Below are positions 46,511-63,736 of a stretch of DNA of 64,000 nucleotides, one piece after another. Each line of letters begins with the position of its first letter. Position 1 is the first letter of the stretch. The stretch spans positions 256,001 to 320,000 of the forward strand of contig CAVYES010000004.1 of NCBI GenBank assembly GCA_963767735.1, written 5' to 3'. Below the pieces are notes generated by a model. The model saw only the letters and a program-made list of their open reading frames with translations, was not told the origin of the DNA and did not search any database. This stretch comes from Candidatus Bathyarchaeota archaeon (GTDB taxonomy: Archaea; Thermoproteota; Bathyarchaeia; Bathyarchaeales; Bathycorpusculaceae). Position numbers and translations under genes: made by a program.

Positions 46511-46600
46511 TTTAGCTATCTTTTTTGCAATTATCACGCCAAATCTGAACAGCTTGTTTTGGGTTGCTTTTTTGAATCAAAGCTTAAATCTTTAACAGAT

Positions 46601-46670
46601 AGTGTGTTTATTTGTGGCAATTTGAGCCTATTTGTGCCAAATTGTGCCATTTTGTGTCGAATTGTGTCTG
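46601..46670. repeat. Seven tandem 10-mers between a TATA box and the start codon
   Basis: agtgtgttta tttgtggcaa tttgagccta tttgtgccaa attgtgccat tttgtgtcga attgtgtctg. Confidence 0.8.
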
Positions 46671-46698
46671 GATCGTAAGTGAAGGATATGGAGTTAGG

Positions 46699-46977
46699 AT
46701 GCCGTTAAGTAGAAAAGTTAATTTTAAAACCACTTTAAAAAGAAGGAATCTCTTGCAGGTTCCAAATGTAATTATATGGGAATTCAAAATGGAGAAAGGC
46801 GAAGCCCTAAAAGTAACCGTAAACGTAGTTGGTTTATTCTCAAACACGGAAAGCTATTGGACTAAAATGAGGAAAGACGGACGCATAACAGTGCCTAAGC
46901 TGATTATAGCTTTGTTGAAGCATGAAGAGCCAAGTCTCGAAGGATACGCTATGGAAGTTACCCTTGAACCAGCATAA
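46699..46977 (+). CDS. Tandem AbrB/MazE-like (swapped-hairpin) DNA-binding protein
   Basis: RRNLLQVPNVI and KDGRITVPKLI repeats; GGAG upstream of ATG 46699. Confidence 0.7.
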   Translation: MPLSRKVNFKTTLKRRNLLQVPNVIIWEFKMEKGEALKVTVNVVGLFSNTESYWTKMRKDGRITVPKLIIALLKHEEPSLEGYAMEVTLEPA

Positions 46978-47348
46978 CACGTACCAATCAATCGCTGGGT
47001 AAAGAGCCCCAAAAACGGAAAAAGTTTCGCCTAACTTGAGCGTTGTCTTCGGATTAACTGTTATTGGCGTTATCTCTATTGTTAAAGGCAGCGAAGAACT
47101 GATAGATGGCAACCTTACTGATGCAGTAATATGCATTGTTGACGGCATCAATTCTGTCAAGCAGAATGCTCCGCAAGTAGCATAAGAAGCAAAAACTGCA
47201 ACAAGAACTCAGAATTTTCTTTTTCTTTCTTTTTTTGTTTAATAGTTTTAGATATCTATTTTTCGGCATTTAATTTATGGTTTAGGGGAAACTGTTTACC
47301 GGGTGTGTTTAACGAGCCTCGCGCTTATGTTAGGTTTTAACTTAAATA

Positions 47349-47618
47349 TCAAAGAAGCTTTGAGAAGTCATCGTACACTTTTTTTCTGTGACCGACAAAA
47401 AGCACTGTTACTTGGTTTTGCTCCACATTTATTTCGTAGATAGCTCGGTAGTCGCCTGATCTTAGGCTCCAATAATCAGAAGGATGTAAGGGTTTTCCCG
47501 CTTTAAACGGATCCGCCTCAAGCTCCCCAAGCGCCTTTTTCAATCTCGCCTTCTCTACTTCTTCGAGTTTTCTTAGAGCTTTCGCCGCATTTGGATGCAA
47601 CAAAACCTTGAAAAACAA
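47349..47618 (-). CDS. RelE/ParE-family toxin
   Basis: FKVLLHPNAAKALRKL..WSLRSGDYRAIY..FVGHRKKVY. Confidence 0.9.
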   Translation of the reverse strand: MFFKVLLHPNAAKALRKLEEVEKARLKKALGELEADPFKAGKPLHPSDYWSLRSGDYRAIYEINVEQNQVTVLFVGHRKKVYDDFSKLL

Positions 47619-47623
47619 AAACC

Positions 47624-47860
47624 TTAAGCTTCCCCTAAAGGAATCAGCTTTTCAGGATGCGCCTTAGCTTCTTCGCTGCGCTTGTGTAATAACTCATAAA
47701 ACTGACGGGTTTTCTCGCGCTCCTCATAGAGGCTTATGATAGTTTTTATGGCGTCACTGCGGCTTTTGAACCGACCCTCAGCAACCCAGCAATCAATTTC
47801 TGCAATCATCTTCTCAGATAATCTTAGCTGAACTTGAGCCATCCAAACCACTGTAAACAA
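47624..47860 (-). CDS. Ribbon-helix-helix antitoxin
   Basis: VQLRLSEKMIAEID..GRFKSRSDAIK; directly upstream of the toxin. Confidence 0.85.
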   Translation of the reverse strand: MFTVVWMAQVQLRLSEKMIAEIDCWVAEGRFKSRSDAIKTIISLYEEREKTRQFYELLHKRSEEAKAHPEKLIPLGEA

Positions 47861-48140
47861 TACTGTTTACAATAACACTTAAATATTTTCCCCGTGAAAT
47901 CAGAAAAACCATTACGCCCACTTGAGGAAAAATCGTTGCCCAAGAAACAATCCAACAGCCTCTTGATAAATCTTAGAAAGCTACGATGAAAAAACTGGAT
48001 TATCTGACAGATGGAAATCCTAAATGGAATAAAGATGACGAAAAAACAATCAAACAGCGCGCTTTGCATAGACGTAGGAAAATGTGTCTGCAGAAATAAG
48101 ATTAGGGAAGCTTAGGGTTTACTGTTCTTGTGAAGCTTTG

Positions 48141-48911
48141 TCATGAAATTGTGCTGTTGCCGGGTGGTGCATAAACGTATGCATTAATGTTTTGACCTGA
48201 AATTGTGCTATTACCTGCGGGTGCATAAACGTATAAACTGCCTGCGTAGTAGGTGCCGCCAAATTCAATGTCGCCGATTCCCTGATTGAAGCTTACGGTT
48301 ACGTTGTAAGTATGCTCGTTTTGAAGAGTTATGGAGTAATCGCTTGCACTATTGTCTATGGAGATAAACGGAAAAGTTACAGTGTAAATTGCCTTTGTTT
48401 GTGCATCTTGGAACTGAACTGAATCGAGATACCCATCAGGATATACTAGGTACACCTCTAATCTTCCTGATACCTCAACGTTAGCACTTAGCACCGACAC
48501 AATGCAAGATGCATTTTCTACTGCTTCACCCCTTGATGCGGTAACAGTCAAAGAGTAATTACCCGTTGGAGTCGAATCTGGTACATGCACTGTTAGAACA
48601 CTCATAAAGTTAGATGCGCCCGTTGCAGGTTCAAAACTGCATCCTAAACCACTATCACCCGTGTCACCGCTTAAGGTAACATTCTCAAGATTTCCTTTTG
48701 AAGTCACATCAACTTCTGCTTGCAAATTGTTTCCTTGTATTACATTTGTTTGATTAAAAGAAACACGAAGATCAAGTGATGTAGACGTTTGCTTTTCTAC
48801 TGATGGTTGATAATAGAATATAATCACCGCTACAGACGAAATAACCAGCACGGCTATTACTATGACAGCAATGGTCATATTCTCTTGTTTCTTGGTTGAG
48901 GTTTGAGCCAA
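48141..48911 (-). CDS. N-anchored surface protein with Ig-like domains
   Basis: N-terminal TM, TPTGNYSLTVTA, duplicated C-terminal YVYAPxGNSTIS. Confidence 0.75.
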   Translation of the reverse strand: MAQTSTKKQENMTIAVIVIAVLVISSVAVIIFYYQPSVEKQTSTSLDLRVSFNQTNVIQGNNLQAEVDVTSKGNLENVTLSGDTGDSGLGCSFEPATGASNFMSVLTVHVPDSTPTGNYSLTVTASRGEAVENASCIVSVLSANVEVSGRLEVYLVYPDGYLDSVQFQDAQTKAIYTVTFPFISIDNSASDYSITLQNEHTYNVTVSFNQGIGDIEFGGTYYAGSLYVYAPAGNSTISGQNINAYVYAPPGNSTIS

Positions 48912-48951
48912 ATAGCATCAATTCTCTTAACTGTTTAATTTTATTTGGCGA

Positions 48952-49608
48952 TTATGGCGTATTTGTCCACACGGGCGTTATAGTCCAATTAGAAACAACT
49001 CCCTCGTGAAAAATAGCTATTTCAAAGTTAGCTGTCTGCCCTACATCTAAACTTCCAAGTTGCAACGAACCAATGGTGCCAAGGTGCAACGCAGCAAATT
49101 CACCTTCCGAAATGGTCGAGCGAGGATTGCCTAAAATTAAAGCGTCAGTTGCACTATCTGTTCCAAAAATTCCGTTAGCCAAAGGAACAGTCATGTTTAT
49201 TTCCAATGTACCATCGGTGGCATAAGCAACAACATGAAATCCTGCGCTGAATGCTGTGACGTGTCCTGAATTGGTTACTGAACCATTAATGCATAGATTA
49301 TCATATGGAATATTAACGGCTAAAGTGGGGAACATTTGTACTAGAGGTGCATTATTCGGCTCTTCAGTTACGGAAAATGAGGTAATAAGGTTCGCAGATG
49401 TTAAATTTGTTATTTGGCTAGTAAGGTTTGAAATTTGGCTGTTTAAGCTTGCTATTTCAGCGGTTAGATTGGTTATGTCATTGTTTAGCGAAGATATTTT
49501 AGAATTTTCACTGCTTACTACACTGTTGTAATAAAATATCGTTCCAGCAATTGCACTTACAAAGAGTATAGCTATCAAAACTGATACGGCTATTATCTTT
49601 TTGTTCAT
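48952..49608 (-). CDS. MNKKII-family membrane-anchored coiled-coil/FxLYD-like protein, copy 1
   Basis: TM, coiled coil, GSVTNSG..AGFHVVAY..INMTVP..NWTITPVWTNTP. Confidence 0.8.
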   Translation of the reverse strand: MNKKIIAVSVLIAILFVSAIAGTIFYYNSVVSSENSKISSLNNDITNLTAEIASLNSQISNLTSQITNLTSANLITSFSVTEEPNNAPLVQMFPTLAVNIPYDNLCINGSVTNSGHVTAFSAGFHVVAYATDGTLEINMTVPLANGIFGTDSATDALILGNPRSTISEGEFAALHLGTIGSLQLGSLDVGQTANFEIAIFHEGVVSNWTITPVWTNTP

Positions 49609-51047
49609 TCAATCACTACATTTCTATTTACGCTATTTACGCTATTTCTCTTTCTTGCAAATACAATTGACAGCAGTATTGCTGATGTAAAAAGTGGCAG
49701 AATTATCCATGTTGGAAATTCTGGAACAGAGGGGGAAGGTGTGCCACTGAACCCTGAAACAGAAGGGGAAGGTACAGTGTTTTGGCTGGTGCCGATGGCG
49801 TAGACTTTTCCGTCGTTTGAGCCCACGTAAACCACACCGTATGCCACGGCGGGAGAAGAATACACTGGTCCGCCTGTTCTGTATGTCCAAATCGTTGCAC
49901 CCGTAGTGACGTTCAAAGCGTAGATGCTATGCCCTTCCGTTGCTCCTAGCGGAGAGGAAGAATTGTCGGAGCCGACGAAGACTACGCCGCTAGCAACTGC
50001 TGGAGAAGAATACTGAATTGAACCCACCGAATTGTTCCAGAGCAACGATCCCGATTCTGCGTTTAAGGCGGTGACTCCTGGAGGTTGGAGAGTGCCTTTT
50101 GTTCCGCCCCAGCTTGTAGACGCATAAATCGCGCCGTTGGCAACGGCAATCGTCGAAGAGGAAACTGCTCCTTTAATATTGCCACTCCAAACGAACAAGC
50201 CGGTGGAAGCGTTCCAAGCCTCAACTGTCTGATTAGTAGTGCCTATGTAAACTAAGCCGTCACTGATTGAAAGAGAAGAATACCCAAAATAAATTACGCT
50301 TCCACCATAGGAAGTGGGTCCGTTGCTTACGACAAAGTAGCTCCAAGATGGTTCTCCCGTGGCTGCATCCAAAGCTACGACTTCTTGACTGGTTCCAATG
50401 TAAACCATGCCGCCGAAAATGGTAGGGGAAGACGGCATATAGGCATTACCAGGAGCATATTTCCAAACAAGGTTACCCGTTGACGCATTCAAAGCGTCAA
50501 GTTCGCCGCCCACGCCATTATTGTCTATATCAACGTAGACTAAGCCGTTTGCAACGGCTGTAGAGGAGATTTCGTCGGGATAAACAGAATCGGTTGGGCT
50601 ACTCCAGATCAATGCACCAGTGTAAGCGTTTAAAGCAAAGATTGCATGACTGTGAAATCCACCAACATAAACTACGCCGTCAACTACAGCTGGCGAAGAC
50701 TGCACAGGTCCACCCGTAGAATAATTCCATATTAAAGCCCCATTCGCAGCGTTCAATGCGTACACGCAGCCGTCGTCTGAGCCAACATAAACTATGCCGT
50801 TTACGACTGCAGGAGAAGACTCAACTGCGCCTCCCGTGGTAAATGTCCAGAGGGTCTGGTTAGTCATGGGTACGGTGGAAGTTGAGTAGCCAGTGTGTGC
50901 TAAGTCATGGTTAAACATTGGCCAGTCTCCAGTTGTACCGCCTTGAGCCTCGCCGAAATGCATACTACCCACAAGAGCCGCCCAGCTAAGTATTATAGCT
51001 ATTAAGAATATACTCAAGAAGGTCTTCGATAACGCCATAGTAGTCAA
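49605..51047 (-). CDS. PQQ-like beta-propeller surface protein with PEF-CTERM
   Basis: DWPMF..HTG, SSPAV..VYVGSxDG repeats, VPEFP-TM-RKR. Confidence 0.9.
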   Translation of the reverse strand: MTTMALSKTFLSIFLIAIILSWAALVGSMHFGEAQGGTTGDWPMFNHDLAHTGYSTSTVPMTNQTLWTFTTGGAVESSPAVVNGIVYVGSDDGCVYALNAANGALIWNYSTGGPVQSSPAVVDGVVYVGGFHSHAIFALNAYTGALIWSSPTDSVYPDEISSTAVANGLVYVDIDNNGVGGELDALNASTGNLVWKYAPGNAYMPSSPTIFGGMVYIGTSQEVVALDAATGEPSWSYFVVSNGPTSYGGSVIYFGYSSLSISDGLVYIGTTNQTVEAWNASTGLFVWSGNIKGAVSSSTIAVANGAIYASTSWGGTKGTLQPPGVTALNAESGSLLWNNSVGSIQYSSPAVASGVVFVGSDNSSSPLGATEGHSIYALNVTTGATIWTYRTGGPVYSSPAVAYGVVYVGSNDGKVYAIGTSQNTVPSPSVSGFSGTPSPSVPEFPTWIILPLFTSAILLSIVFARKRNSVNSVNRNVVIE

Positions 51048-51208
51048 TTAATAATGCCGCGCATGCTCTTAAGAGCGTTTTTGTAAAAATTTATTGTCAA
51101 AAGATTTCTTGACTAATGTTTAGCTTATTCCGCACTGTGCAGATTTGAGACTTACCCTCAAGGAAACTTTAAGAAAAAGAATGAATAATGTTCTTGGCTC
51201 TATGTTGA

Positions 51209-51748
51209 TTACGGAGTGTTTGTCCACACTGGTGTTACAGTCCAATTGGTTACAGTGCCTTCGTGATAAATAGCTATAGCGATTGATACATTCTGCTCGC
51301 TGTATAAATTTCCAAGTTGTAACAAGCTTGTTTGATAAATACTTGAAACATAAGCGTTAGTTGCAGCATCGGTTCCAAAGGTAGCATCATAATCCATAGG
51401 AACAGTCATGTTTATCTCTACTTTGCCAATGGCATCATAAGCTACAACATGTAATCCTGCGTTATATGCTGTGCTTTGTCCAGTATTAGCAACTGATCCA
51501 GTAATGTAAAGATTATTAAATTTTGTAGGATTGCCCTTATTTCCAGAATTATTAGGTATAACTTCCGCAATTCCTAAGGCGGTTGTAAGATTTGCAGTTG
51601 TCAGCTTTTTCAATTGAGCTTTAAGGTTTGAAATTTGGCTGTTTAAATTGGATACTTTGTTATTATAGTAAAATATCGTTCCAGCAATCGCACTCACAAA
51701 GAGTATAGCCACTATCAAGAATGAAACAGCTATTATTTTTTTGTTCAT
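51209..51748 (-). CDS. MNKKII-family protein, copy 2
   Basis: Same N- and C-termini as copy 1 with a variable middle. Confidence 0.8.
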   Translation of the reverse strand: MNKKIIAVSFLIVAILFVSAIAGTIFYYNNKVSNLNSQISNLKAQLKKLTTANLTTALGIAEVIPNNSGNKGNPTKFNNLYITGSVANTGQSTAYNAGLHVVAYDAIGKVEINMTVPMDYDATFGTDAATNAYVSSIYQTSLLQLGNLYSEQNVSIAIAIYHEGTVTNWTVTPVWTNTP

Positions 51749-51752
51749 TCAA

Positions 51753-53686
51753 TCACACATTTCTATTTACGCTGTTTCTCTTTCTTGCAAATACAGTTAA
51801 CAGTAGTATTATTACTGCAAACAGTGGCAGAATTATCCATGATGGAAACTCTGGAACGGTTGGAGCTGGCGATACAGATGGCAAAGAGGCATCGGAAACA
51901 AACTGAATAGTCCCATTACCCATATCAAGCATTACATTCTTCCCTGAATCATAAACCATCGAATCACTATCTATTGGAACAGTTTCAATAACGCTTCTTG
52001 TCCTATCCGATATGATGTATGTGTCATACACAGCGCCGGCAAATAAGACGCTTTTCACTGGGTCATAGGCAACATTAATAGGAGAAAATTGTGGCGGGAA
52101 ACTTTCTAACGGAATAGAATCTATTACTGTATGAGTCTTATCAGAAACAACTAACACAGAACTATTAAAGGTAGGCAGGTATATCTCGCCTGTTGCTGAA
52201 TCATATGCCCCAGACCCAAGTAAAGTTATGCTTTTGTCTAATGGTATGGTTGCTATAACGGAATTAGTGGAATCCGATATAACCGAAATGTAATTTTCAG
52301 AATACTGGCCTAGAAAACCAGAACAGCTAACGTATATTTCTCCCTTAGCTGAATCGTACGTTAAGGCTCCTAGCGGGGATTGCCTCCTAAAGGTATGCTT
52401 GCCACGACTTGGTTGGTAATATCTGAGATAACTAAGACTCCTCCGAAAACCCCGCTGCTAACAAACATCTCCCCTTTGCCTGAGTCATAAACTATGTTTC
52501 CCGCGCTACTAAGGTTTGTATTCGAATCGATGGTTGCCACCACCGAATTGCTCATATCAGATATAACCACCACACCATTTCCATTTGTTGTAACATAAAC
52601 TTCATGGAGAGCAGAATCATAAGCAAGACTGGTTGGATTTTGACCAACTGTAACGTTTGCAAGTACTGTATTGTCGCTGTCTGATATTGCTAAAACCGTG
52701 TTGCTTGGTAGATATATTGGCATTCCCATCGCGCCATATCCAGATAAATAGTCAGGGTTTACCCACACTGCGCTTTTGTAGGAATCATATACCATTATAG
52801 GCTCACCGTTAAAGGGCACTGATTTGACTATTTCAACCGCGGTTAGCGAGGAAGAGGGCGTAGCGGTAGACGAGAGAGTAGGGGGAGAAGTAGGCGAAGA
52901 ACTGGGTGAAGTAGGTTGTGATGATGCAGAATTTGACAAGGTTAATGAATCAACAACTGATAAGTAACTTGTGATTTCATTTGTTAATTGCGATGTCTCA
53001 TCTGTGGGTGATGCGTAAAACTTAATCGGTGAGTCTATAGGTAATGAGCTAGTCAAATAATTCGTAAAATTCAAACCTACAACTGCCCCACCAACATTGT
53101 AAAATGTAGTAACAACCCATGGGTCTTGCGCCACTTGATTGCCATTGTTCACAACGGTTCCAATAACATAGTACGAGCCGTTACCGGGTAAATAAGAGGC
53201 ACTGCTCCCTGCTGGAATCGTCAAACCTGAATATTGAGTTGCAGTTGTTTCAGTAACGGAAGTAACTGTGACGGCGACAGTGCTAACACTGGAGACCCAA
53301 CTGAGGTCTTTGCTGATGCTGCTCTGAGCATTAAGGTCTATGTAGAAAGGTGCTTTTTGTTCAGGAAGCATGTCATACACGAATGCTTGGCTTGTAGTTG
53401 TGGCCAACTCTGTTCCAGTGGAGCTAAAAGCACTGCCTTCGACAGTTACGTTTCCTATAATGTTTGAACCAACATTTTCTACTTCACCAACAATGATTAA
53501 ATCGCCAGGTTCTGATGCTAAGACAGTTGTCGAAGGCGCAACATACGAACTGTAACTCAGAACTATAACCCCTGAAATTGCCCTTTCTGCAACAGCGTTT
53601 ACTGAGCTAACAGTATCTGTTGTTGCCAAAACCATCGCGCTAATCATTAATGCTATTAATACGATGCTTAAACGCGACTTATACAT
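51753..53686 (-). CDS. FxLYD-like + YncE/YVTN beta-propeller fusion with PEF-CTERM, frameshifted near 52375
   Basis: N-half paralogous to 29453-30427; YDS..E..V..VISD repeats continue across the shift (LTYDSAKGEIYV); ends VPEFP-TM-RKR. Confidence 0.8.
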
Positions 53687-53839
53687 CTCCTAGCTCCATC
53701 CTAAACTTATTGTTGCTTTGTTCATTATTTTATTTGCTTCTCTTTTGCTTCCACAAGGCTATTTCCGTGCTTTTCAGATTTAAGGCTTATCGTGGTTTCA
53801 AAAAGCCAAAAAAAAGAATAATATACACATAACTTATTT

Positions 53840-54925
53840 TCAGTGCTTGCGTTTCCTGCAGTAGACCAACAAACCAGAAGCCACCATTATAGTGAGCAGT
53901 AGCGGAGTTGTCCATATTGGAAACTCTGGAATAGAAGAGCTAGGCAACAGGAGCGAGGGAGCTGATATCACCGAGACCTTATTGCTTTCAGAATAGGTCA
54001 CAAATATCGCCCCTTTGCCGGCATCATAACATATGCCTTGGGGGTGGGTTTCCAGAGCTATGTTTGCAACAACAGGATTGTTACTGTTTGATATCACCGA
54101 GACCGAGCTTGAATTATAGTTCGCTACAAAGACCTGGCCATTACCAGAATCATACACCACACCGTTGGGACCGACTCCTACGTCAACGGTTGCAACAACC
54201 AGGTCTGTGCTACCTGATATTATTGATACCGAACTGGAATTGAAGTTGGCTGCGAAAATTTCTCCTTTAGCAGAATCATAAGCTAAGCTTAAGGGTTGAC
54301 TTCCCACGGTTACGTTTGCAACAACGGCGTTAGAGCTGTCCGATATCACTGAGACCTGATTGGAAGCAGCATGACCTACGAAGATTTCTCCTTTACCTGA
54401 ATCATAAGCTACTGCACAAGGTTGACTTCCGACAGTTATGTTTGCAACCACAGTATTGTTTCTGTCGGATATAACTGAGACCGAACTGGAATTGTAGTTG
54501 GCTACGAAAATTTCGCCTTTATCAGAATCATAAGCTGCAGCAATGGGCTGACTTCCTACGGCTATGTTTGCAACAACAGTATTGGTGCTATCCGATATCA
54601 CCGAGACCAAATCGGATGCATAGTTAGCTACAAATAATTCCCCATTGGCAGAGTCATAAGCTATTCCTACTGGCTTGCTTCCTACAGCTAGGTCTGAAAC
54701 GACTGTATTAGTGCTGTCTGATATTACATAGACCAAATCGAAATCCCCATTGGCTATGAAGATTTCGCCTTTATCAGAATCATAAGCTATGCCATAGTAG
54801 CCACCCGGTTTTTCCAACGTTATCGTGGCGGTTATTTCAACGGCGTGAATGGCATTGGTTGCGGATAAGACAAGAATTATAGTGATTAGAATTGAGACAA
54901 GGAAAGCTTTGTTTTGGTCTTTCAC
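53840..54925 (-). CDS. YncE/YVTN beta-propeller surface protein with PEF-CTERM
   Basis: Seven AYDSxKGEIFVAN..VSVISD repeats; IPEFP-TM-RKRK. Confidence 0.9.
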   Translation of the reverse strand: MKDQNKAFLVSILITIILVLSATNAIHAVEITATITLEKPGGYYGIAYDSDKGEIFIANGDFDLVYVISDSTNTVVSDLAVGSKPVGIAYDSANGELFVANYASDLVSVISDSTNTVVANIAVGSQPIAAAYDSDKGEIFVANYNSSSVSVISDRNNTVVANITVGSQPCAVAYDSGKGEIFVGHAASNQVSVISDSSNAVVANVTVGSQPLSLAYDSAKGEIFAANFNSSSVSIISGSTDLVVATVDVGVGPNGVVYDSGNGQVFVANYNSSSVSVISNSNNPVVANIALETHPQGICYDAGKGAIFVTYSESNKVSVISAPSLLLPSSSIPEFPIWTTPLLLTIMVASGLLVYCRKRKH

Positions 54926-56691
54926 AAATATGCCTTCCGCTTAGATTTAAGGTGCACAAAAGTAACTGCGATAACGCCCGTTGCCATCACTAAAATGAGC
55001 GCTGCACTGTTGAACTCTGGAACAGTTGGAGTAGGGGTTGGCGTTATGTTTGGAGTAAGCGTTGGCGTCAATGTTGGCGTCGGCTGACTTGAATCTATTG
55101 TGAAATAAACAGTATTAACCCAAGTGGTTTGGCTAATTAATGTGTCTGCCGTTATATTGCCGCTATAGAGTTCTTCGTCAATTCCAATACTTAATTGATG
55201 TGAACCATTAGGTAGTTGCGGTAACTGAAATGACCCATTTACCGTATAGTATTCTGGGATGGGAATGGAATTCGGATTGAGACTCCAAGGCAAGCCACCT
55301 TGATATTGTCCGTCAATGCTATAGTTTAATGAGCTTTGGACACCTTTTGGGCAATTGAATGTGCCGTTGCATTCTACAACATTAGAATTATATGTTGTGT
55401 TGACTGGTGAATAAAGGGTAAGTCCAGAAGAGAAAACAATAGAGTTGACCTTCGGTACAGGAGTGGGAGTTGGTAGGGGAGTTGGGGTGGCGGTCGGCGG
55501 TGAAGTTGGCGGCGATGTAGCATTTAACGCATAAACATCTCCATTGACTGAGCCTACGTAGACTACGCCGTTGACGACAGCAGGAGACGACTCAACCCAA
55601 TTGCCCGTATTATAATTCCAAAGTTTGGCACCTGTATTTGCATTCAAGGCATAAACGTTGCCGTCCTCAGAACCAACGTAAACTATACCGTTTGCAACAG
55701 CAGGAGACGAAACAACCACGCCACCAGTGGTGTAATTCCAAAGCTGGATGCCGTTAGCAGCGTTCAAAGCATAAATGTTTCCGTCACCCGAACCTATGTA
55801 AACTGCGCCATTGACGATTGCGGGTGACGAATCAACAAATTTGCCCGTAGTGTAATTCCATAGTTGGGTGCCGCTTGTTGCGTTCAAAGCGTAAACGCTG
55901 CCATCTTCAGAGCCCACGTAGACCGTGCCACCAATTACTGCTGGCGATGAATAAACATAGCCGCCTGTGGTGTAGTTCCAAAGTTGGGCACCCCCACTGG
56001 CATTTAGGGCATAAACGTTGCTATCATCTGAGCCCACAAAAACTATGCCGTTGATAAAGGCTGGAGATGAAACAGCCCAGTAGCCAGTTGAGTAATTCCA
56101 AAGTTGAGATCCGTCGCTGGCGTTCAAAGCGTAAATGTGGTCGTCTGCAGAGCCGAAATAGACTACGCCGTTGACTACGTTGCAGGGTGAAACTGCGTTG
56201 CTACTAAATACTCCATTGTCGACTCTGGGAGATGAAAGCCCGACTCCAGTTACGTAATTCCATAGTTCGGTACCGTCTGTTGCGTTTAGGGCGTAAATGT
56301 CTGCCACCAAAGAAACCGTTGACGGTTGGGTTGCAGTAGGTCCAAAGGAGCCGACGTAAACTACCCCGTTGACAACGGCAGGAGACGAATCATCCTCGTT
56401 GATAGTGTTGAACTTCCAAAGTTGTATGCCGTCAGCACAGTTCAAAGCATAAACGTTTCCGTCACCCGAACCTATGTAAACTACGCCGTCGACAACTGCG
56501 GGAGACGAAGTAACAGAGCTACTTGTGTTAAAGCTCCAAAACGGCACGGAATTGAAGGGCGAATTTTCCGTTCCTATGCCTGTGTGAGATGGATCTGCAC
56601 GGAACATTGCCCAGTCAGCGTTTGCAAACGGAATCAAAACTACGCTGGAAATAAAAATTATGCAAACTAATGCCCCGACGGTTTTTTTCAC
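54922..56691 (-). CDS. PQQ-like beta-propeller + Ig-like surface protein with PEF-CTERM
   Basis: DWAMFRADPSHTG, eight SSPAV-type repeats, PT linkers, VPEF-TM-KSKRK. Confidence 0.9.
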   Translation of the reverse strand: MKKTVGALVCIIFISSVVLIPFANADWAMFRADPSHTGIGTENSPFNSVPFWSFNTSSSVTSSPAVVDGVVYIGSGDGNVYALNCADGIQLWKFNTINEDDSSPAVVNGVVYVGSFGPTATQPSTVSLVADIYALNATDGTELWNYVTGVGLSSPRVDNGVFSSNAVSPCNVVNGVVYFGSADDHIYALNASDGSQLWNYSTGYWAVSSPAFINGIVFVGSDDSNVYALNASGGAQLWNYTTGGYVYSSPAVIGGTVYVGSEDGSVYALNATSGTQLWNYTTGKFVDSSPAIVNGAVYIGSGDGNIYALNAANGIQLWNYTTGGVVVSSPAVANGIVYVGSEDGNVYALNANTGAKLWNYNTGNWVESSPAVVNGVVYVGSVNGDVYALNATSPPTSPPTATPTPLPTPTPVPKVNSIVFSSGLTLYSPVNTTYNSNVVECNGTFNCPKGVQSSLNYSIDGQYQGGLPWSLNPNSIPIPEYYTVNGSFQLPQLPNGSHQLSIGIDEELYSGNITADTLISQTTWVNTVYFTIDSSQPTPTLTPTLTPNITPTPTPTVPEFNSAALILVMATGVIAVTFVHLKSKRKAYL

Positions 56692-56843
56692 GCGATTTCT
56701 CCCTCAATTTTGCGGTGATTCACAGGTGCTTTAGCTTTCAGAGAATTTTCGGTTACATCGTCAGAAGACAACGCAGGCTTAGCCACAATTACGCAAGGTA
56801 CAGTTTGGAAGACGAGAGCAAGCACTAAGGCGAGATTTTTCAC
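56688..56843 (-). pseudogene. Truncated relic of a secreted protein (signal peptide plus the start of a Kelch-like repeat)
   Basis: VKNLALVLALVFQTVPCVIVAKPALSSDDVTENSLKAKAPV..; its stop overlaps the next GTG. Confidence 0.45.
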
Positions 56844-57017
56844 TCAAGCTCATCTAACCTTACTTAAGCAAGGGTGGCGATAAAAGAGTTCTTGTAAAGA
56901 TTACTTGACACATGATTTCTTGACTTGTGGTTTAGGTCATTTCTGCGCTTTTCAGATTTAAGACTTATCTTCACAAAAACTTTGGGAAAAAGAATAATGT
57001 TCTTCTTTGATTGATGA

Positions 57018-57599
57018 TTATGGCGTATTTGTCCACACAGGCGTTACAGTCCAATTGGAAATATAGCATGAGCCAAAAACGTTTAGATTAATTTGAGCAG
57101 ATTGTCCTCCATCTAAATCTGTTAGAGAATAACTGATTAGAGAAGAAGTGCCATTGCCTAAGTACTCAGACCCAAAGCCCATAAAATCTCCTTGAGTTAA
57201 TGGAACGGTCATGTTTATTGATAGTACATTACTTACAACAGTACCATTCGTTTCAGGAAATTCACCATATGCAACTACATGTAATCCTGCGTTGTGTGCC
57301 ACACCTTCTCCTATGTTAGTTACTGTGCCATAAAGATTGAGTTGGGGAAAACCTGCTACGCCTCCAGTAGTGTTTCGCCAACCTGCGGTTTCGGTTAGAT
57401 TAGTTACAAGATTCGCAGGCATTTGGCTTTCAAGGTTTGAGAGTTGGTTAGTAAGATTTGCTATTTCAGTGTTTAGAGAAGCAATCTTAGAGTTATCACT
57501 ATTAACTATTGCTTTATAAAAAAAAGCTGTGCCAGCAATCGCACTTACAAAGAGGACAGCTATCAAAACTGATACGGCTATTATTATTTTTTTATTCAT
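57018..57599 (-). CDS. MNKKII-family protein, copy 3
   Basis: Same termini as copies 1 and 2. Confidence 0.8.
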   Translation of the reverse strand: MNKKIIIAVSVLIAVLFVSAIAGTAFFYKAIVNSDNSKIASLNTEIANLTNQLSNLESQMPANLVTNLTETAGWRNTTGGVAGFPQLNLYGTVTNIGEGVAHNAGLHVVAYGEFPETNGTVVSNVLSINMTVPLTQGDFMGFGSEYLGNGTSSLISYSLTDLDGGQSAQINLNVFGSCYISNWTVTPVWTNTP

Positions 57600-57624
57600 T
57601 CAATCACTAACATTTCTATTTACG

Positions 57625-59061
57625 CTATTTCTCTTTCTTGCAAATACAATCGATAGCAGCATTGTTGCAAAAAGTGGCAGAATTATCCAAGTTTCTAAAC
57701 CTTGAAATAATGTACAAGCACAATGAAGTAGCCGCTCCGACGGCTGCAATTATTATGGCGAGTACAAAGAAAAGCTGCCCTTTTGAAGTGTCGATGTTGA
57801 CGGATTGGGTAAGGTATGGCTGAATTAACGGATATTCGTCCGTGTTGTTGCCGCCAATAGTGTATGGGGTGTCACCTATATCGTCCCCGTTGCGGGCAGT
57901 TCCATTGTAGCTGCTCCAGTAGTTGCCTTCCTTACCATTATCCCAATAGTTTATCGACAAAGATGAATTTCCCAAAAGAAGCAAGGGTTCGGAGTCGTTA
58001 ACGAAATTGTTATGGTAGAGGGTGTTGTTGCCAAATGGGTAATCGTCGCTGGAGCCACTCACCATTACTGCGTAACTGCAATTTGCGACAGTGTTTTCGT
58101 AGATAGTGCTGTTTACGCCGCCAAGGCTTAAGCCTGATTCTGAAAAGTTGAATATGTTATTTTCGTAGATAACGCTGTAGGAACTAACTCCGATGGCATC
58201 TATTCCATTTACCATGGTGTTTCTTGCGACTGTTCCGTTGTCGCCAGCCCCTATCGGATCCACCACGTTTACTAAAACATTGTCGATTATTGTGTTCGAG
58301 TAACTAAAGCTCATGGATATGCCAGTCGTCGCGTCGCTAATGTTATTTTTGGAAATGGTGTTGCTTACTGATGGCCCAAAACCATACCAGCTAGTATAAC
58401 CTATTGCAGTCGTTGAGTTGCCAAAGGTATTGCCCGTTACTGTTGTATCATTAGCTGAGTTTACATCTACCCCAGTGTTAACGTTTGACAAAACATTATC
58501 TTGAATGATTACGCTTGAGCAGTTTTGTATCCATATGCCTTGCCAAAACAAGCTAATTTGAAAGTTCTTGATTGTGACGTTGTGTACGTCCTGAAGGTCA
58601 AAGCCTTCAAGAGCATATCTGTTGCCGTAGTTGAAACCTTGCAAGGCATGACCTGCACCGTCAATTATGATGTTGTCGCTTTGAACGTTGATGGTTTGAT
58701 TAATAATATCTTGGGTTAATGTGTAAACATCTCCATTTCGCTGAATAGGTGCCGCAGTTGAGTTTACGCTTCCGTTCGCTTCGATCGTTATGCTACTAAG
58801 GGGATTAGCAAAAAATACCTGATAACTCGATGCTGAAGAAAATGAATTTGAGGCTGACAAGAACGGCTCGATTGACAAGCTTGAAGGAATTGTTGGTAAC
58901 GTTGATTGTGCCGTCGATCCTGCCTGCGAAGGAAAGAAGCTGAAGCTTATTCCACCTAGCAGAAGCGCGGAAACTATTGCAATCGTAATAGTGATGACGA
59001 TTTTGATTTTCTGTTGACTCATATCTGCCACTTCGTGAGATTTGATAAAGGCGAGGGTCAT
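57625..59061 (-). CDS. NosD/right-handed beta-helix surface protein
   Basis: IQRNGDVYTLT, IIIDGAG, YHNNF, WDNGKEGNYWS..GDTPY..DEYPL; C-terminal TM. Confidence 0.88.
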   Translation of the reverse strand: MTLAFIKSHEVADMSQQKIKIVITITIAIVSALLLGGISFSFFPSQAGSTAQSTLPTIPSSLSIEPFLSASNSFSSASSYQVFFANPLSSITIEANGSVNSTAAPIQRNGDVYTLTQDIINQTINVQSDNIIIDGAGHALQGFNYGNRYALEGFDLQDVHNVTIKNFQISLFWQGIWIQNCSSVIIQDNVLSNVNTGVDVNSANDTTVTGNTFGNSTTAIGYTSWYGFGPSVSNTISKNNISDATTGISMSFSYSNTIIDNVLVNVVDPIGAGDNGTVARNTMVNGIDAIGVSSYSVIYENNIFNFSESGLSLGGVNSTIYENTVANCSYAVMVSGSSDDYPFGNNTLYHNNFVNDSEPLLLLGNSSLSINYWDNGKEGNYWSSYNGTARNGDDIGDTPYTIGGNNTDEYPLIQPYLTQSVNIDTSKGQLFFVLAIIIAAVGAATSLCLYIISRFRNLDNSATFCNNAAIDCICKKEK

Positions 59062-59198
59062 GTGGGGATTACCTTTGATTGTTTTTGTAGCCTCGCTTTA
59101 TTTTGTCAAGTTAACCAACTGCAGGCGGCTACTTAATTCTACATTTTAGAACAAAACGGCTTGTTTACAGGGTATCTGTTCAAAAGTCTTGAACACGG

Positions 59199-59669
59199 AT
59201 GCGCTTAAATCCACCATCCAAATTAATTGAAAGAGCAGTGGCTACCTTGGGGTCTGACAAAACCGACGATGTACTCAGAGGAACAACCCTTGAAGTCTAC
59301 CATTTCATCCTAAAAAGCGGTAAACCCGTTGGAGTTCGGGAAGTTCAAAGAGCCCTCAACCTGAGTTCACCCTCATTGGCAGTATATCACATGTCCAAAC
59401 TTGAAGAAGCTGGACTTCTTAAACGTGAAAACGGTGACTACGTAATTAACAAAGTTGTGCTAAAAGACACCGTCAAAATTAGTCACTTCTTCATACCAAG
59501 ATACCTATTCTATGCGATATTCACCGTCGCAGCCCTCATAATTGAACTAACACTGCTAAGACCACCTATTATCACAAGCGGGTACTTCTTTACAACAGTA
59601 GTCACTGGAGTGTGCGCAGCTGCATTCTGCTTTGAAACCGTGAGAACATTGATTAAGGGCAGCTTCTAA
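59199..59669 (+). CDS. Membrane-anchored wHTH transcriptional regulator
   Basis: GTTLEVY..GVREVQRALNLSSPSLAVYHMSKL followed by two TM helices. Confidence 0.85.
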   Translation: MRLNPPSKLIERAVATLGSDKTDDVLRGTTLEVYHFILKSGKPVGVREVQRALNLSSPSLAVYHMSKLEEAGLLKRENGDYVINKVVLKDTVKISHFFIPRYLFYAIFTVAALIIELTLLRPPIITSGYFFTTVVTGVCAAAFCFETVRTLIKGSF

Positions 59670-60122
59670 AACAAACTGACAGTTCTGCTCTTTACTCTCT
59701 TATTTAAAAATCCTTGTTGCCATCGATCTTCCACTTTTCATCAATCCAAAGCTGTCATGTTCTCAATTCGGTTCTTGCTTCTTTGCAGAGAAATAAGGTT
59801 TAGGCCCTCGCGGAGGGCGTCAACGAAATCTTCAATGTCGACCAGCGCCCTCTTTGTTTCCTCAACGAACACGCGGTTCTATTCGTTGATTGATACTGCG
59901 TCCTTGGCAACCTGCCGTTTATCCATAAACGTGCGATAAGCCGTCCGCACGGCATTGTAAAGTCTAAGCTCTCCTAATAACAAAGCCACGAATGAAGTCT
60001 CCTAACTGTTAGGCAAGAAACTGATGAATGAAAAAAAGGGAGAACGCAGAAGCGAAAATTCTAGCTGTCGATACGGGCTATCTCAGACAGAACTGAAAGA
60101 GACACAATTTTTCACCTAACAG

Positions 60123-61358
60123 TTGCGAAAGCTGTATAAGATAATTGAAGCAAACAAAATCTTTATGAAGAACCTAAAGAAACTCTCATCCATCTTGATT
60201 TTATTCGCTGTAGTTCTTGCGTTGTCACTAACCAATTCGGTTCACGCAGTTGGAGTAATTGGCACAATAACGGTGGGCGATAATCCTGCAGGACTCGCTT
60301 ATGATACAGGAAAAAGCGAAATTTTTGTTGCCAATTACAATGATGGAACAATCTCTATTATTTCTGACACCAGCAATAATGTGGTTGGGCAACTTGCAAC
60401 TGGCCCCTCGCAGAACGCTCTCTCTACTCCTGACGACGTAGCCTATGATTCGGTGAAAGGAGAGATCTTTGTAACTAATACTAACCTAAATAATGTGTCT
60501 GTAATCTCAGACAGCACTAACACTATAGTTGCGAATATAACTGTAGGCGAACAGCCAGTGGGGATAGCCTACGATTCTGGCAAAGGAGAGATGTTTGTGG
60601 TTAACGCTGCTTCTGGCACGGTCTCAGTTATATCAGATAGCACAAATACCGTGATTGCAAACATGACCGTTGTTGCCAACACTTCGCTCGTGCAAGCACA
60701 CGCTGAATATCCAGTTAGTATAGCTTACGACTCTGGTATGAACGAACTCTTCGTTACTACGGACCCAGGAACGGTCTATGTTATTTCGGATAGTAGCAAT
60801 ACTGTGGTTGCTAATGTGACTGTTGGAGATAGCCCTGCAGGTTTAGCTTATGATGCTAGTAAGGGGGAGGTTTTCGTTACTAATTTTGATTCCCAAACTG
60901 TTTCAGTCATTTCGGACAAATCTAATGAGGTAGTTGCAACCGTGCCCGTTGGAGGCTACCCAGAAAGTGTTGCTTTCGATTCGGGCAAAAGCGAAATGTT
61001 TGTGGTCAGCTCTGGTTCTAATACTCTCGCGCCACAAGACACTCTTGGCAGTGTTTCCGTCATATCGGACAGCAGTAATACCGTGATCGCTAACTTCACC
61101 GTGGGGGGCTGTAATGGTGTAGCCTATGATTCTGCTAAGGGCGAGGTCTTCACGACCAATGCTGGTTTCGGCACGGTCTCTGTCATAACCGATGCCTCTG
61201 ACACATCAGCGTCGCCAAGCCCAACTATATCTACAATTCCTAGTCCAACTGTTCCCGAGTTGAGCAACCAGGCTCTCATTTTGGTGGTCGTATTAATCGT
61301 GGCATTGACCTTTTGCGCGTTGTATCGGCATATAAAAAATCGACCCGACTTGCATTAG
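60123..61358 (+). CDS. YncE/YVTN beta-propeller surface protein with PEF-CTERM-like tail
   Basis: AYDSGKGEMFV..VSVISD repeats; VPEL-TM-basic tail. Confidence 0.88.
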   Translation: MRKLYKIIEANKIFMKNLKKLSSILILFAVVLALSLTNSVHAVGVIGTITVGDNPAGLAYDTGKSEIFVANYNDGTISIISDTSNNVVGQLATGPSQNALSTPDDVAYDSVKGEIFVTNTNLNNVSVISDSTNTIVANITVGEQPVGIAYDSGKGEMFVVNAASGTVSVISDSTNTVIANMTVVANTSLVQAHAEYPVSIAYDSGMNELFVTTDPGTVYVISDSSNTVVANVTVGDSPAGLAYDASKGEVFVTNFDSQTVSVISDKSNEVVATVPVGGYPESVAFDSGKSEMFVVSSGSNTLAPQDTLGSVSVISDSSNTVIANFTVGGCNGVAYDSAKGEVFTTNAGFGTVSVITDASDTSASPSPTISTIPSPTVPELSNQALILVVVLIVALTFCALYRHIKNRPDLH

Positions 61359-61525
61359 ATCATGCGCCACAATGAAACCCCGCTTAAATCTAATGAACGT
61401 TCGAAATGCAGCCTACGTTGACGAGACCTGCTTACGTCTCGCATCTTCGATGTTCTAAAGGATAGAACTAAATATTGCAGTCTTTAATCTTAGGATAAAG
61501 AAATTCCTCTGGCGGCCTGGCTTAA

Positions 61526-62224
61526 ATGGGACTCTCTAGGAAACTGGTTTTTACTGTGCTTCTGCTTGTTGCAGTTTTCCTAATATCTTTTCTTGTTGCT
61601 TTCTTTGCCTTTTCGCTTACCCCTTATGGACATGTTACCGAGCGAGTGTATTCGCCAATCTTTCCTTATTCCTATGCTGATAATGACACTTCAACTATAG
61701 GAGGCGCATGGCAAAGCCAACTTCTTTCTCCACAGCCAGAAGCTGGTTCAACTAACGTTTCACGTGATACGACAATTTTGATTATCGAACCTAGACCCAT
61801 AAAGATCGAGAATCTGACTTTAAGCCCTCCACTGCCTATAACGATAAAATCTAGCGATTACGTTTTTTCAGCATATATGGAGGCCTATCCTGCCGCGCTT
61901 TTGCAGCCGAACACAACTTACAATGTGTCAGCAATAGTGGCTGGCACACCGTCATGGTGGATTTTTACCACGTCGTCTGAACCTTCTCAGCCAACATTCA
62001 GCACTCACTTAGCACCTTACGATACATGGGTGGCGTTTACAGCAGCGATTCTTGTGACATTAACAGTCTCAGTAATTTTGATCCAAAGAAAAACGAATAC
62101 TTGGTTTCTGGGTAACTCGGTTACAAACACGAGCAAACCAACACCTGAAGCGCGTTGCCTATCCCTCTCGACCTCATTTTCGTTCTCCACATCCAATCAG
62201 CCTAAAGCTGTCATATTCACTTGA
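61526..62224 (+). CDS. Membrane-anchored Ig-like (Big_5-like) protein
   Basis: SPQPEAGSTNVSRDTTI..LQPNTTYNV..WIFTT between two TM helices. Confidence 0.7.
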   Translation: MGLSRKLVFTVLLLVAVFLISFLVAFFAFSLTPYGHVTERVYSPIFPYSYADNDTSTIGGAWQSQLLSPQPEAGSTNVSRDTTILIIEPRPIKIENLTLSPPLPITIKSSDYVFSAYMEAYPAALLQPNTTYNVSAIVAGTPSWWIFTTSSEPSQPTFSTHLAPYDTWVAFTAAILVTLTVSVILIQRKTNTWFLGNSVTNTSKPTPEARCLSLSTSFSFSTSNQPKAVIFT

Positions 62225-62359
62225 CTATTTAATGCCCCGTTAATAGACCTCACAGGTTAAAGAATAAAAGTTAAGTCCAGTTTTCTGGACATTACAAAGC
62301 CAAGTTATCTTTACAAGCAACCTTTTATCGGTCTTACTTCTTAACAGCTTATTGAAGAG

Positions 62360-63647
62360 ATGGATGGTGTGAGCAAGCGTTTAGCATTAGCAGTCACTTT
62401 TATCTTATTGACGGTTATACTGCCCTGTGCGACGGTAAACGCTCAGGCGTCTTCTGACGATTGGCCAATGTTACGTGCTGACCCGTCGCATACGGGAGCC
62501 GCCACAGGCGACACGGTGGTTACTCCCAATCTGCTTTGGAGCTATCCCACTCATGGCGGACCCGACAGCGGGGAATCTTCCCCAGCCATCGTCAAAGGCA
62601 TATTATACTTCGGTTCGACCGACGGAAACCTTTACGCTTTAAATGCAACAGACGGCATGAAGTTATGGAACTATAGCACTGGAGGCCCAGTTGAATCTTC
62701 GCCAGCAGTTGACAACGGAATCGTCTATGCTGGCTCAAGTAACGGCAGCCTTTATGCGTTAAATGCAACTAACGGTGACAAAATCTGGAGTTTCAGCACC
62801 GATATAATATATTCCTCACCGACTTTTACTAGATGACGTAGTTTACTTTGCAGGCAGCCACACTGTTTATGCTTTGAACGCCAAAAGCGGGTTGATGCTT
62901 TGGAATAACAGTATCACCTCGGCTTATTGGGGGATTTACTCATCTCCAGCCGTCGCCAATGGAGTTGTCTATATTGGCTCAGATGATCATAATCTTTATG
63001 CCCTGAACGCGACAGACGGCCGTCAACTCTGGGTTTACCCTACAGAAAACTGGGTTGAGTCATCGCCCACCGTTGCCAACGGCATAGTTTATGTCTCATC
63101 AGAAGACGAAAACCTGTATGCCTTAAACGCAGCTAACGGCCAAAAAATCTGGAACTACAACATTACACTTGACACTGCAAACGGCGAGTCTATCGCGGTT
63201 GCCAACAACGTGGTTTACGTTTTAAGCGGCCTTAACGGAGAAATTAAAGCTTTAAACGCCAAGACTGGAGAGCTAATATGGAGTTCAAGCACAACTGATT
63301 GTCAGCCATTCCCAATAATTGTAGGCAACGTGTTATATGTTGGAGGTATCGACAACCTTTTTGCTTTTAACGCTACCGATGGCAGTTGGCTCTGGAACTC
63401 TAATCAGACGGGAAATATTTTGTCTTCGCCTGCTTATGCCAACGGGGTAGTTTACGTTGACTCCACAAACGGAAACATTTACGCTTTTGGAACACCCTTA
63501 GCCACATCAGCCCAAGCAACGCCATCGCCAGCCTCAACTCAAGCCATCCCAGAGTTTTCATGGTTAGCAATTTCGCCTTTGTTTCTCTCAGTGCTGTTGA
63601 TTGCTGCCGTACTTAGGCATCGGAAAACCCTTAACCTGAAGCTTTGA
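62360..63647 (+). CDS. PQQ-like beta-propeller surface protein with PEF-CTERM, frameshifted near 62830
   Basis: DWPMLRADPSHTG; SSPAV repeats in both ORFs; IPEFSW-TM-RHRK. Confidence 0.85.
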
Positions 63648-63736
63648 CCTTTTTTCACGGATAGGTGTATAGCCCCAATCGCCTGTAAAATAAAATCTTT
63701 TAAGCAAGGTCAAACCAAATACGAAATAGAAACTAA

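Follow-up and report, generated by a model that had tools for sequence, protein, structure and literature searches.

A tail-leader linker block marks likely gene exchange on both of its sides in a bathyarchaeal surface-protein island

Introduction

Several described systems resemble parts of the locus reported here. The closest for the protein tails is PEF-CTERM (TIGR03024), which pairs with archaeosortase C (ArtC; TIGR03762) and places a PEF motif, a hydrophobic helix, and a basic C-terminal cluster on many secreted proteins, according to the accessible part of that source (PMC5244752). The tails analyzed below share this layout. Unlike PEF-CTERM as outlined there (PMC5244752), however, they also mark exchange points, and they score below the TIGR03024 cut-off in a genome whose sortase is nearer thaumarchaeosortase than ArtC. 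A second likeness is VARTIG of the Thermococcales, in which surface proteins of archaea carry a putative sorting signal and are varied by inter-species recombination with no integrase nearby; the same report mentions mosaic Ig proteins of Methanosarcinales whose C-termini are conserved (PMC8416519). In the portion of it available, what varies in VARTIG is the C-terminal Ig domain within a single gene family, over a zone of ~600 nt, and the exchange zones of inter-species shuffling are not placed (PMC8416519). In the present locus, by contrast, the change involves whole unrelated passengers, within ~30 bases ahead of a constant tail, and extends to the following gene.

Three further systems resemble a dispersed element of about 33 bases that supplies part of the locus. 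PeSL cassettes of T4-type phages are repeated promoter-bearing intergenic elements that flank unrelated small ORFs in plastic regions and have been proposed as recombination linkers (PMC2839356). PeSLs as presented in the available text are ~100 bp long and viral, with a terminator stem-loop, and mini-circles were shown (PMC2839356), whereas the present element is archaeal and chromosomal (found also in one virus group), lacks a strong hairpin, and has a promoter role predicted from its sequence. The class I intergenic repeats of Halovirus HF2 are likewise archaeal, repeated, and laid out with BRE and TATA boxes, and by the accessible account they are viral and conserved in position (PMC8707807); the present element is scattered through host islands, where its flanks change, and its promoter activity is again putative. 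Integrons, including archaeal ones, form same-strand arrays of single genes enriched in secreted and membrane proteins (10.1101/2022.02.06.479319, as far as accessible). Here, no IntI was found in the genome, the repeat stands before the gene and is promoter-like, and predicted folding of the element consensus showed no attC-like fold. Outside subscription journals, in a literature screened mostly by title, we found no description of such exchange zones or of such an element in Bathyarchaeia.

Results

A linker block recurs in the window and elsewhere in the genome

Bathyarchaeia are abundant uncultured archaea of soils and sediments with many surface-protein genes. The window, the whole 64,000-nt stretch analyzed, comes from one such genome; its features given below lie on the minus strand except where stated. 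The first-pass annotation had reported a block recurring at three sites of the window with two motifs identical in every copy. Sequence comparison recovered all three, at 49532-49727, 51669-51857, and about 57529-57693, and neither motif varies when the three are aligned. Against copy 1, copies 2 and 3 each show 84% identity (E values of 1e-49 to 1e-56). The block also occurs outside the window, with 3 more full copies in the genome at C4:330274-330455, C6:108812-108998, and C6:111734-111916, along with 2 tail-only matches and 1 partner gene without a tail.

By alignment, copy 1 (49532..49727) consists of the end of a Pro/Thr linker, a PEF-like sorting tail, a leader remnant, and the first codons of partner 1, the tail stop codon overlapping the partner 1 start; an identical short-read contig spans the block. 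Copy 2 (51669..51857) is in frame with passenger 2 and is matched by an identical short-read contig over 51716-52009. Junctions 1 and 2 are both covered without difference by short-read contigs of 2 runs. Copy 3 (57529..57693), from frame analysis and orthologue comparison, retains a remnant of the tail but no PEF; it is not in frame with the upstream NosD-like gene, to which it is joined at a short stretch resembling PEF codons. The central part of the block matches the right (leader) half of the dispersed promoter-like element and aligns with the leaders of 6 element-headed genes from relatives. The same fused middle (RN..VSD/VIE, then the start) is common to all 6 copies of this genome and to the outside junctions. 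The block is chimeric, pairing a PEF-like tail with the element's leader half.

Passengers and neighboring genes

The domains upstream of the block are unrelated, as had been suggested, and have Pfam/NCBIfam matches. Passenger 1 (49605..51047) is a secreted PQQ-type beta-propeller of 480 aa (PF13360, PF13570) in frame with the tail. Passenger 2 (51753..53686) carries 2 FxLYD domains (NF038353, 38.1 bits against a cut-off of 23), a YVTN/YncE propeller, and the tail. The assembly splits its ORF at 52374, where runs X2 and X3 of two studies show one extra base; the split is therefore likely an assembly error and the FxLYD-YncE gene intact. Two more surface-protein genes in 53840..56691, a PQQ propeller with an Ig-like domain (589 aa) and a YVTN/YncE propeller (361 aa), were assigned by Pfam/NCBIfam matches and the tail pattern and have PEF-like tails of other subtypes without the linker block.

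The third upstream gene does not fit the proposal of three passengers on one anchor. It encodes a NosD-like beta-helix protein of 478 aa (57625..59061; PF05048) that has orthologues in G020 and G019 and a C-terminal membrane helix of its own, and the copy 3 tail WIILPLF..RNV lies in another frame, without PEF and without a start. Past its hydrophobic anchor, which is retained, the NosD frame continues into the block for 19 unrelated residues, and the orthologues of NosD align as far as this anchor and end there. Read contigs show a relative's contig to be strongly different at copy 3. Divergent from NosD is a winged-helix regulator with a hydrophobic C-terminus (59199..59669, plus strand; Pfam match and homologue comparison), and in G019 its homologue is likewise divergent from the NosD operon.

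The genes downstream of the block are of mixed ancestry. Partner 1 (48952..49608, 218 aa), by sequence analysis and a family model, has an N-terminal membrane helix, a coiled coil, and a beta-sandwich. Homologue comparison identifies a second membrane-anchored gene after it (48141..48911), whose homologue also follows the partner at C6:111223 and in G027. Partner 2 (51209..51748, 179 aa) shares 91% identity with the protein encoded at metagenome locus L202. Partner 3 (57018..57599, 193 aa), from the tree and comparison, is sister to a G019 gene lacking an upstream block, and the two match from the start codon onward. NF038353 reaches 18.2 bits on partner 2, below the cut-off of 23, and has E<0.01 in 5 of 27 family members. 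The best hit of a fold search with the partner was the Ig-like domain of a beta-galactosidase (Z 8.1, rmsd 2.9, 91 residues aligned), a value in the range of common beta-sandwich likeness from which we draw no function for the modeled partner. An ESM Atlas search gave unnamed clusters only, below 0.9.

Genes change on both sides of the block

That passengers are exchanged by recombination at the anchor is supported by related loci and by a gene order that differs in relatives. Three locus pairs share the block and the downstream gene at 83-92% DNA identity and have unrelated upstream genes, the likeness breaking just before the PEF codon. The copy at C6:111814 (X6) and L198 are 91% identical over 785 nt, with 22/30 identities upstream of PEF and then 3-11/30. 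Window copy 2 matches L202+L194 at 92% over 587 nt (15/30, then 6-8/30); here L194 and L202 were joined on a 104-base identical overlap between two contig ends. L193 and L195 are 83% identical over 1026 nt (20/30, then 6-12/30), with L193, L206, and L033 counted once as the same gene pair. Likeness is thus lost within about 30 bases ahead of the PEF codon, and the breaks cannot be placed to a single base. Blastp between the two passengers found no match within any of the 3 pairs. Across pairs, the L198 and L193 passengers are related, as are those of L195 and X6 (33%), which means that 2 passenger families and 2 downstream genes occur in all 4 combinations. Matches of a junction pattern scan that lacked a tail or an ORF (6/11 in metagenomes and 2/3 in genomes) were set aside as chance.

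The downstream gene is no more constant than the passenger, contrary to the idea of a constant anchor and partner. First, the 6 block-bearing partners are not one clade (AU test, p 4e-49, on the 18 of 26 sequences that kept the trimming motif; the other 8 lacked it and were dropped), which rejects a single duplicated tail-partner cassette in that sample. Second, close relatives of block-bearing partners have no tail, and genes other than the partner family also follow the same junction. Third, the partners are themselves swapped at the start codon: X6 and G027 are 89% identical from there onward and unrelated upstream. As in VARTIG-like shuffling between species, the closest relatives of the modules are found in other species and not in this genome, namely G027/L198 for X6, G019 for partner 3, and L202 for partner 2.

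Tails and sortase

The tails of copies 1 and 2 conform to a PEF motif, transmembrane helix, and basic C-terminal residues, and a pattern scan found 41 PEF-like tails genome-wide. The PEF-CTERM assignment thus stood for these two copies at the level of the motif; it failed for copy 3, which has no PEF and is out of frame, and in the TIGR03024 scores, which were 12.2 bits for gene 2 and 20.1 for the genome best against a cut-off of 23. Tail codons are biased yet varied, the commonest Pro-Glu codon pair occurring in 18/41 tails compared to 12% expected. The only exo/archaeosortase-family gene of the genome, at C8:164721, scores 40.8 with TIGR03762 (cut-off 100), 76.9 with the thaumarchaeosortase model (cut-off 250), and 49.7 with the family signature TIGR04178 (cut-off 23). 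By these scores it is nearer thaumarchaeosortase than ArtC, under both cut-offs. The tail subtype occurs alone in many genomes at 75-92% identity, and G087 has a different tail-to-leader fusion that is probably independent.

Age of the copies

The tails are 70-89% alike among copies, and on this divergence the block is old. Four-fold-site identity is 0.686 in the block compared to 0.608 in the partner body (95% interval of the difference, -0.04 to 0.20), in a low-power test of 23 columns with non-independent pairs, and within those limits there is no excess that would indicate recent gene conversion of the block. The first-pass annotation had envisaged a surface-diversification system and had counted similar synonymous divergence in the block and the rest of the duplicated genes among the grounds for rejecting it. 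The block is not distinguishable at silent sites from the partner body, and an active diversification machine is not supported. Amino acid identity is 0.76-0.81 in the block and 0.47 in the body. Two-fold-degenerate sites are conserved at 168/173 in the tail compared to 496/651 in the partner, which hints at DNA-level constraint or recent exchange below the reach of the 23-column test. Among the joints listed for 8 read runs (contig depth 2-5, except one RNA run of relatives), same-strain contigs showed no variant junction, and the joints lay within propeller repeats or reflected paralogue misplacement. Same-strain contigs did not bridge the NosD junction, and at this depth the outcome weighs neither for nor against exchange. 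Mini-circles or precise excision between neighboring elements were likewise absent among the joints listed for these 8 low-depth contig sets.

A dispersed promoter-like element

Profile searches placed the element ahead of passenger 1 (51121..51156, score 36.1), ahead of passenger 2 (53756..53791, 41.0), and at 56934..56969, an exact match and the genome's best-scoring copy (45.7). It occurs in 50 of 120 genomes of the genus (reversed control, 0) and is absent from the other genera sampled. It is also present in one virus group. Its core is nearly invariant in 123 copies. The arrays are on the same strand, with up to 7 copies, each ahead of an unrelated ORF; the 59 element-headed ORFs fall in 47 families, and trailer repeats are common to unrelated ones. 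Among the 59 ATG-led ORFs, 21 begin 38-40 bases from the element's first base, the leaderless distance from its TATA-like box, a placement like that of a promoter. Pairs of copies share the right flank only in 32 cases and the left flank only in 82. The consensus folds at -2.8 and -1.5 kcal/mol without a stable hairpin, and the PEF-like tail is joined into the element inside its imperfect dyad. At orthologous sites of a second array, with a flavin-reductase-like gene, the upstream content varies, and no clean empty/filled pair was found there. The element is not a casposon target scar in the two cases compared: its copies lie inside or 1.4 kb outside C5:450598-459092 and not at the TIR ends, and none lies at the ends of a second TIR-bounded Cas1 element (C5:28679-39233).

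The window from 46511 to 64000 (no strand assigned) is the left part of a ~40-kb island (C4:302511-342436) whose flanking genes adjoin in relatives, the far flanking gene lying within 1.5 kb in 10 of 19 relatives examined. No match to a tyrosine recombinase, IntI, or Cas1 was found inside the island; elsewhere in the genome there are 16 tyrosine-recombinase matches and 3 Cas1 genes. The best genome-wide IntI score was 42.4 bits against a cut-off of 265 (genome 95% complete), and an integron was ruled out on the lack of IntI.

Discussion

The best reading is that the block serves as a two-sided linker in the building of mosaic surface-protein operons. We consider it probable that flanking genes were exchanged at both of its ends, with ordinary recombination at short homologies, spread over long times, as the likely route. 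A single deletion would have fused a PEF tail with the leader of a gene headed by the element, with loss of the promoter core, and would have set stop and start side by side, for which translation coupling is predicted. The fused piece would then offer 30-100 bases of homology per side, because about 40 genes have a PEF-like tail and a similar MNKKII signal recurs at the start of many secreted genes. New genes would be grafted onto either end by general recombination, probably with DNA of related species, and most in-frame products would be retained; the out-of-frame NosD product may survive because this protein brings an anchor of its own. What this predicts is a changing repertoire of surface proteins with sortase-type anchors, each coexpressed with a stalked Ig-like membrane protein. 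Copies that are 70-89% identical are poor substrates for RadA-type recombination, and exchange would therefore have occurred when donors were closer or through microhomology. Against this mechanism, the breaks cannot be fixed to the base and a site-specific enzyme may have acted in trans, the genome having tyrosine-recombinase matches and Cas1 genes outside the island.

Such an enzyme is central to the strongest alternative, a dedicated system in which a trans-acting integrase uses the ~33-base element as its recombination site to stack single-gene cassettes, the block being a secondary-site product of this enzyme. Its near-invariant core, restriction to one genus among those sampled, same-strand arrays, one-sided flank sharing, trailer repeats, and the tail fusion inside the dyad are what such a system would leave behind. 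However, selection on transcription can explain the conservation of an element placed like a promoter, the passenger breakpoints are at PEF codons and not within the element, the predicted hairpin is weak, and neither IntI in the genome nor an integrase or Cas1 in the island was found; we think this alternative unlikely. A wider form of it is speculative, and we hold it to be possible though doubtful. In it, one Bathyarchaeia lineage would have a chromosomal gene-cassette system whose promoter element and trailer repeats serve as the joint by which a trans recombinase captures, stacks, and moves single genes, also into viruses, and the tail-leader chimera would carry the principle over to surface proteins assembled at the level of domains.

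In another reading, the island is unstable and underwent separate microhomology deletions and insertions, the copies exchanged nothing with one another, and each passenger brought its own similar PEF tail. This would account for the NosD junction, which resembles a microhomology join, for the probably separate G087 fusion, and for tails that occur alone in many genomes. The fused middle common to all copies of this genome and to outside junctions would hardly be reproduced independently, however, and we judge this reading quite unlikely. An old tandem duplication of a tail-partner unit, with DNA likeness kept by protein constraint, agrees with the similar four-fold-site identities and the higher amino acid identity of the block, but unrelated passenger folds, partners that form no clade, and passengers that differ at loci 91-92% alike downstream have largely refuted it and leave it very improbable.

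On the two-sided linker reading, the locus offers base-level exchange zones for the inter-species shuffling of archaeal surface proteins, tied to a sorting signal. The element arrays are the more novel lead. A dispersed promoter-like element heading arrays of unrelated genes in one lineage is a candidate archaeal chromosomal counterpart of phage PeSL cassettes.

Passengers change at the anchor tail

Genome-wide blastn of the Bathyarchaeia genome G000 (3.04 Mb, 10 contigs) detected six full copies, at 80 to 87% identity, of the block, a linker consisting of a PEF-like anchor tail, a leader remnant, and the first codons of a membrane-protein ("partner") gene. Two further matches covered the tail alone, and one was a partner start without a tail; tblastn found seven partner genes. 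The first-pass annotation had placed the block at three sites in the window, and it is present at all three (49532-49727, 51669-51857, and ~57529-57693), with the two motifs it quoted as identical indeed invariant in the three-copy alignment. The upstream surface-protein genes, or passengers, encode a PQQ propeller, an FxLYD + YVTN propeller, and NosD in the window, while those elsewhere encode proteins of 308 and 209 aa, without a family assignment, and another NosD-like protein that shares 31% identity with the window NosD.

The proposal that recombination at or near the anchor swaps passengers is supported by three pairs of loci that share a block and downstream gene and carry different passengers. 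In the first pair, X6 (the block locus at C6:111814) matches metagenome locus L198 at 91% identity across 785 nt. In the second, window copy 2 matches L202+L194, two contigs joined by a 104-base identical overlap, at 92% across 587 nt, and in the third, L193 matches L195 at 83% across 1,026 nt. One exchange zone lies at the PEF codons: in each pair, 15 to 22 of the last 30 bases before PEF are identical, compared to 3 to 12 of 30 farther upstream, and the passengers within a pair gave no blastp match to one another. Across pairs, the L198 passenger resembles that of L193, and the L195 passenger that of X6; thus, each of two passenger families occurs with each of two downstream genes. A junction-pattern scan gave true junctions in 5 of 11 metagenome hits and 1 of 3 genome hits.

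Copy 3 did not fit the description of its tail as the NosD anchor, since the tail is out of frame and NosD ends in its own membrane helix. The NosD orthologues in relatives G020 and G019 align as far as this helix and diverge beyond, and the window sequence passes into the tail at a few bases that look like PEF codons. By eye, intergenic positions 59690-59730 resemble the sequence after the NosD stop in G020 and may be what is left of the original NosD end. For passenger 2, the FxLYD + YncE identity held up; the break at 52374 is likely an assembly error, as contigs of two runs, from separate studies, lack it. The tail of copy 1 shows a nine-base tandem duplication (49624-49633) in run X1 and not in run X2, which reflects either variation between strains or collapse of a repeat. 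Another gene for a PQQ propeller with a PEF-like tail (62360-63647) is split into two ORFs, possibly by a further assembly frameshift.

Partners change at the start codon

The partner is a genus-level family, found in 18 of 36 same-genus relatives, with one weak match among 24 others. Its ancestry within G000 is mixed, and the "constant partner" of the earlier reading had to be abandoned: a clade of the six block-bearing partners was rejected (AU P = 4e-49; 18 of 26 sequences in the test), and partners themselves change at the start codon, the second exchange zone. For example, X6 and relative G027 share 89% identity beginning at the start codon and are unrelated upstream of it, and partner 3 matches G019 likewise. 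Flanking genes thus change on both sides of the block. A full-length block match was seen in G000 alone among 120 genus genomes; others matched just the tail or just the partner start, and in three (G085, G084, and G087) the tail runs into a different gene.

A promoter-like element matching the block middle

Relatives often have an ~33-base element at the head of their partner genes; it combines a BRE/TATA-like core with an imperfect dyad. The block middle is chimeric, aligning with the right half of this element. A profile, trained on the same G000 copies it scored, gave 30 hits in G000, 26 of them above the best reversed-sequence control. Three lie in the window (51156, 53791, and 56969), each at the head of a transcription unit. 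The exact pattern was present in 50 of the 120 genus genomes, against 0 for the reversed control; across 151 class genomes, no other genus had it. Within the genus, the element is confined to one lineage; it was present in 11 of 11 relatives at ≥81% marker-gene identity and in 0 of 32 at ≤70%.

Some trends were apparent. First, 59 of 125 copies head an ATG-led ORF of at least 50 aa, in 47 families, and 21 of these 59 start at +38 to +40, the leaderless distance. Second, the element forms same-strand arrays ahead of unrelated ORFs (G000 C4:249444-250890; L104, L114, L100, and L116). Third, flanks change at the element, with 82 pairs sharing only the left side and 32 only the right. Fourth, unrelated element-headed ORFs share trailer repeats. 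Finally, in three near-identical viral contigs, the element precedes a single inverted gene among virion genes. Most simply, by analogy with PeSLs, the promoter-bearing recombination patches of T4-type phages (PMC2839356), the element would be a promoter moving together with accessory genes and doubling as a recombination patch. The arrays carry the case for something novel, a dedicated chromosomal gene-cassette system, which we consider doubtful.

The trailer repeat is a mosaic of 50 to 130 bases following the ORFs (G000 C4:330944-331010, C5:170798, C5:451664, and C6:474288; L106, L109, and L114), and by eye, its first part looks like the right end of the element in inverted orientation. Before several surface-protein genes (56890-56935 and 51075-51120; L034, L009, L071, and L114), the element is followed by another conserved stretch that contains inverted-repeat boxes, likely operator sites. 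Positions 59199-59669 encode a membrane-tethered winged-helix protein.

Genomic setting and mechanism

The array sits inside an ~40-kb island (C4:302511-342436), and in 10 of 19 relatives examined the left-edge gene has the C4:342437 gene within 1.5 kb downstream. We favor, with reasonable confidence, a linker born by deletion. A single deletion would have brought the tail and the element's leader together, so that stop and start abut or overlap; genes would then have been grafted onto either side by recombination of the general or microhomology type. The donor DNA probably came from related species, because the closest copies are found in genomes other than G000.

A site-specific system acting in trans is unlikely. 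Within the island, there was no match to a tyrosine recombinase (16 matches elsewhere in G000) and no mapped Cas1 (3 elsewhere) or integron integrase; archaeal integrons differ from the G000 system in both enzyme and site. Independent deletions fit worse than the single-deletion linker and are less probable still. Plain duplication also fits worse and is very improbable, even if silent divergence in the block is not distinguishable from that in the rest of the duplicated genes, the outcome expected of simple duplication: agreement at 4-fold sites was 0.69 (tail), 0.64 (partner start), 0.61 (partner middle), and 0.60 (partner end), with saturation at 0.32, and the block-minus-partner-body difference had a 95% interval of −0.04 to 0.20. 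This weak test gave no sign of ongoing homogenization, though 2-fold sites in the tail agree to a striking degree (168 of 173). Pairwise tail likeness is 70 to 89%.

In run contigs (eight runs, depth 2 to 5), junctions 1 and 2 were unchanged, and no passenger switch appeared among the joints listed for same-strain contigs. A relative's contig from an RNA run extends from NosD into partner 3; of its 34 substitutions, 21 fall within 57615-57686, as do likely most of the 21 gap letters, and the tail remnant in this interval is either replaced or decaying.

At the left edge of the island (46512-46980), a repeat precedes a small AbrB-like-looking ORF, and loose ends of three runs cluster at 46558-46590; a ParE/RHH toxin-antitoxin pair (47349-47860) comes next. 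The other partner loci (C6:100948-115421 and C7:305904-315883) adjoin tRNA-Arg genes, with a terminase-like gene in one and an integrase in one, which suggests integrated-element remnants as vehicles. Two casposon-like, Cas1-bearing elements (C5:450598-459092 and C5:28679-39233) have long terminal inverted repeats of 305 and 153 bases.

Relation to known systems and predicted products

The closest published systems to the block and element, as far as the cited accounts go, are VARTIG, the hypervariable Ig module of Thermococcales surface proteins, described as recombining between species without an integrase (PMC8416519), PeSL cassettes (PMC2839356), and HF2 promoter repeats (PMC8707807). Block recombination is now better supported than before, and the finding is a variant of known linker-mediated mosaicism, not a new machine.

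G000 has 41 PEF-like tails and one sortase-family gene, which scores below the archaeosortase C and thaumarchaeosortase cutoffs. The tails score below the TIGR03024 cutoff and are therefore called a lineage variant rather than PEF-CTERM members by score; they likely work like PEF-CTERM. The partner model (pLDDT 90) predicts a single long helix, comprising a membrane segment and a coiled coil, and a beta-sandwich whose fold matches only generic Ig-like domains. We infer that the products are anchored surface proteins coexpressed with a stalked Ig-like membrane protein, which may plausibly serve adhesion or envelope variation.
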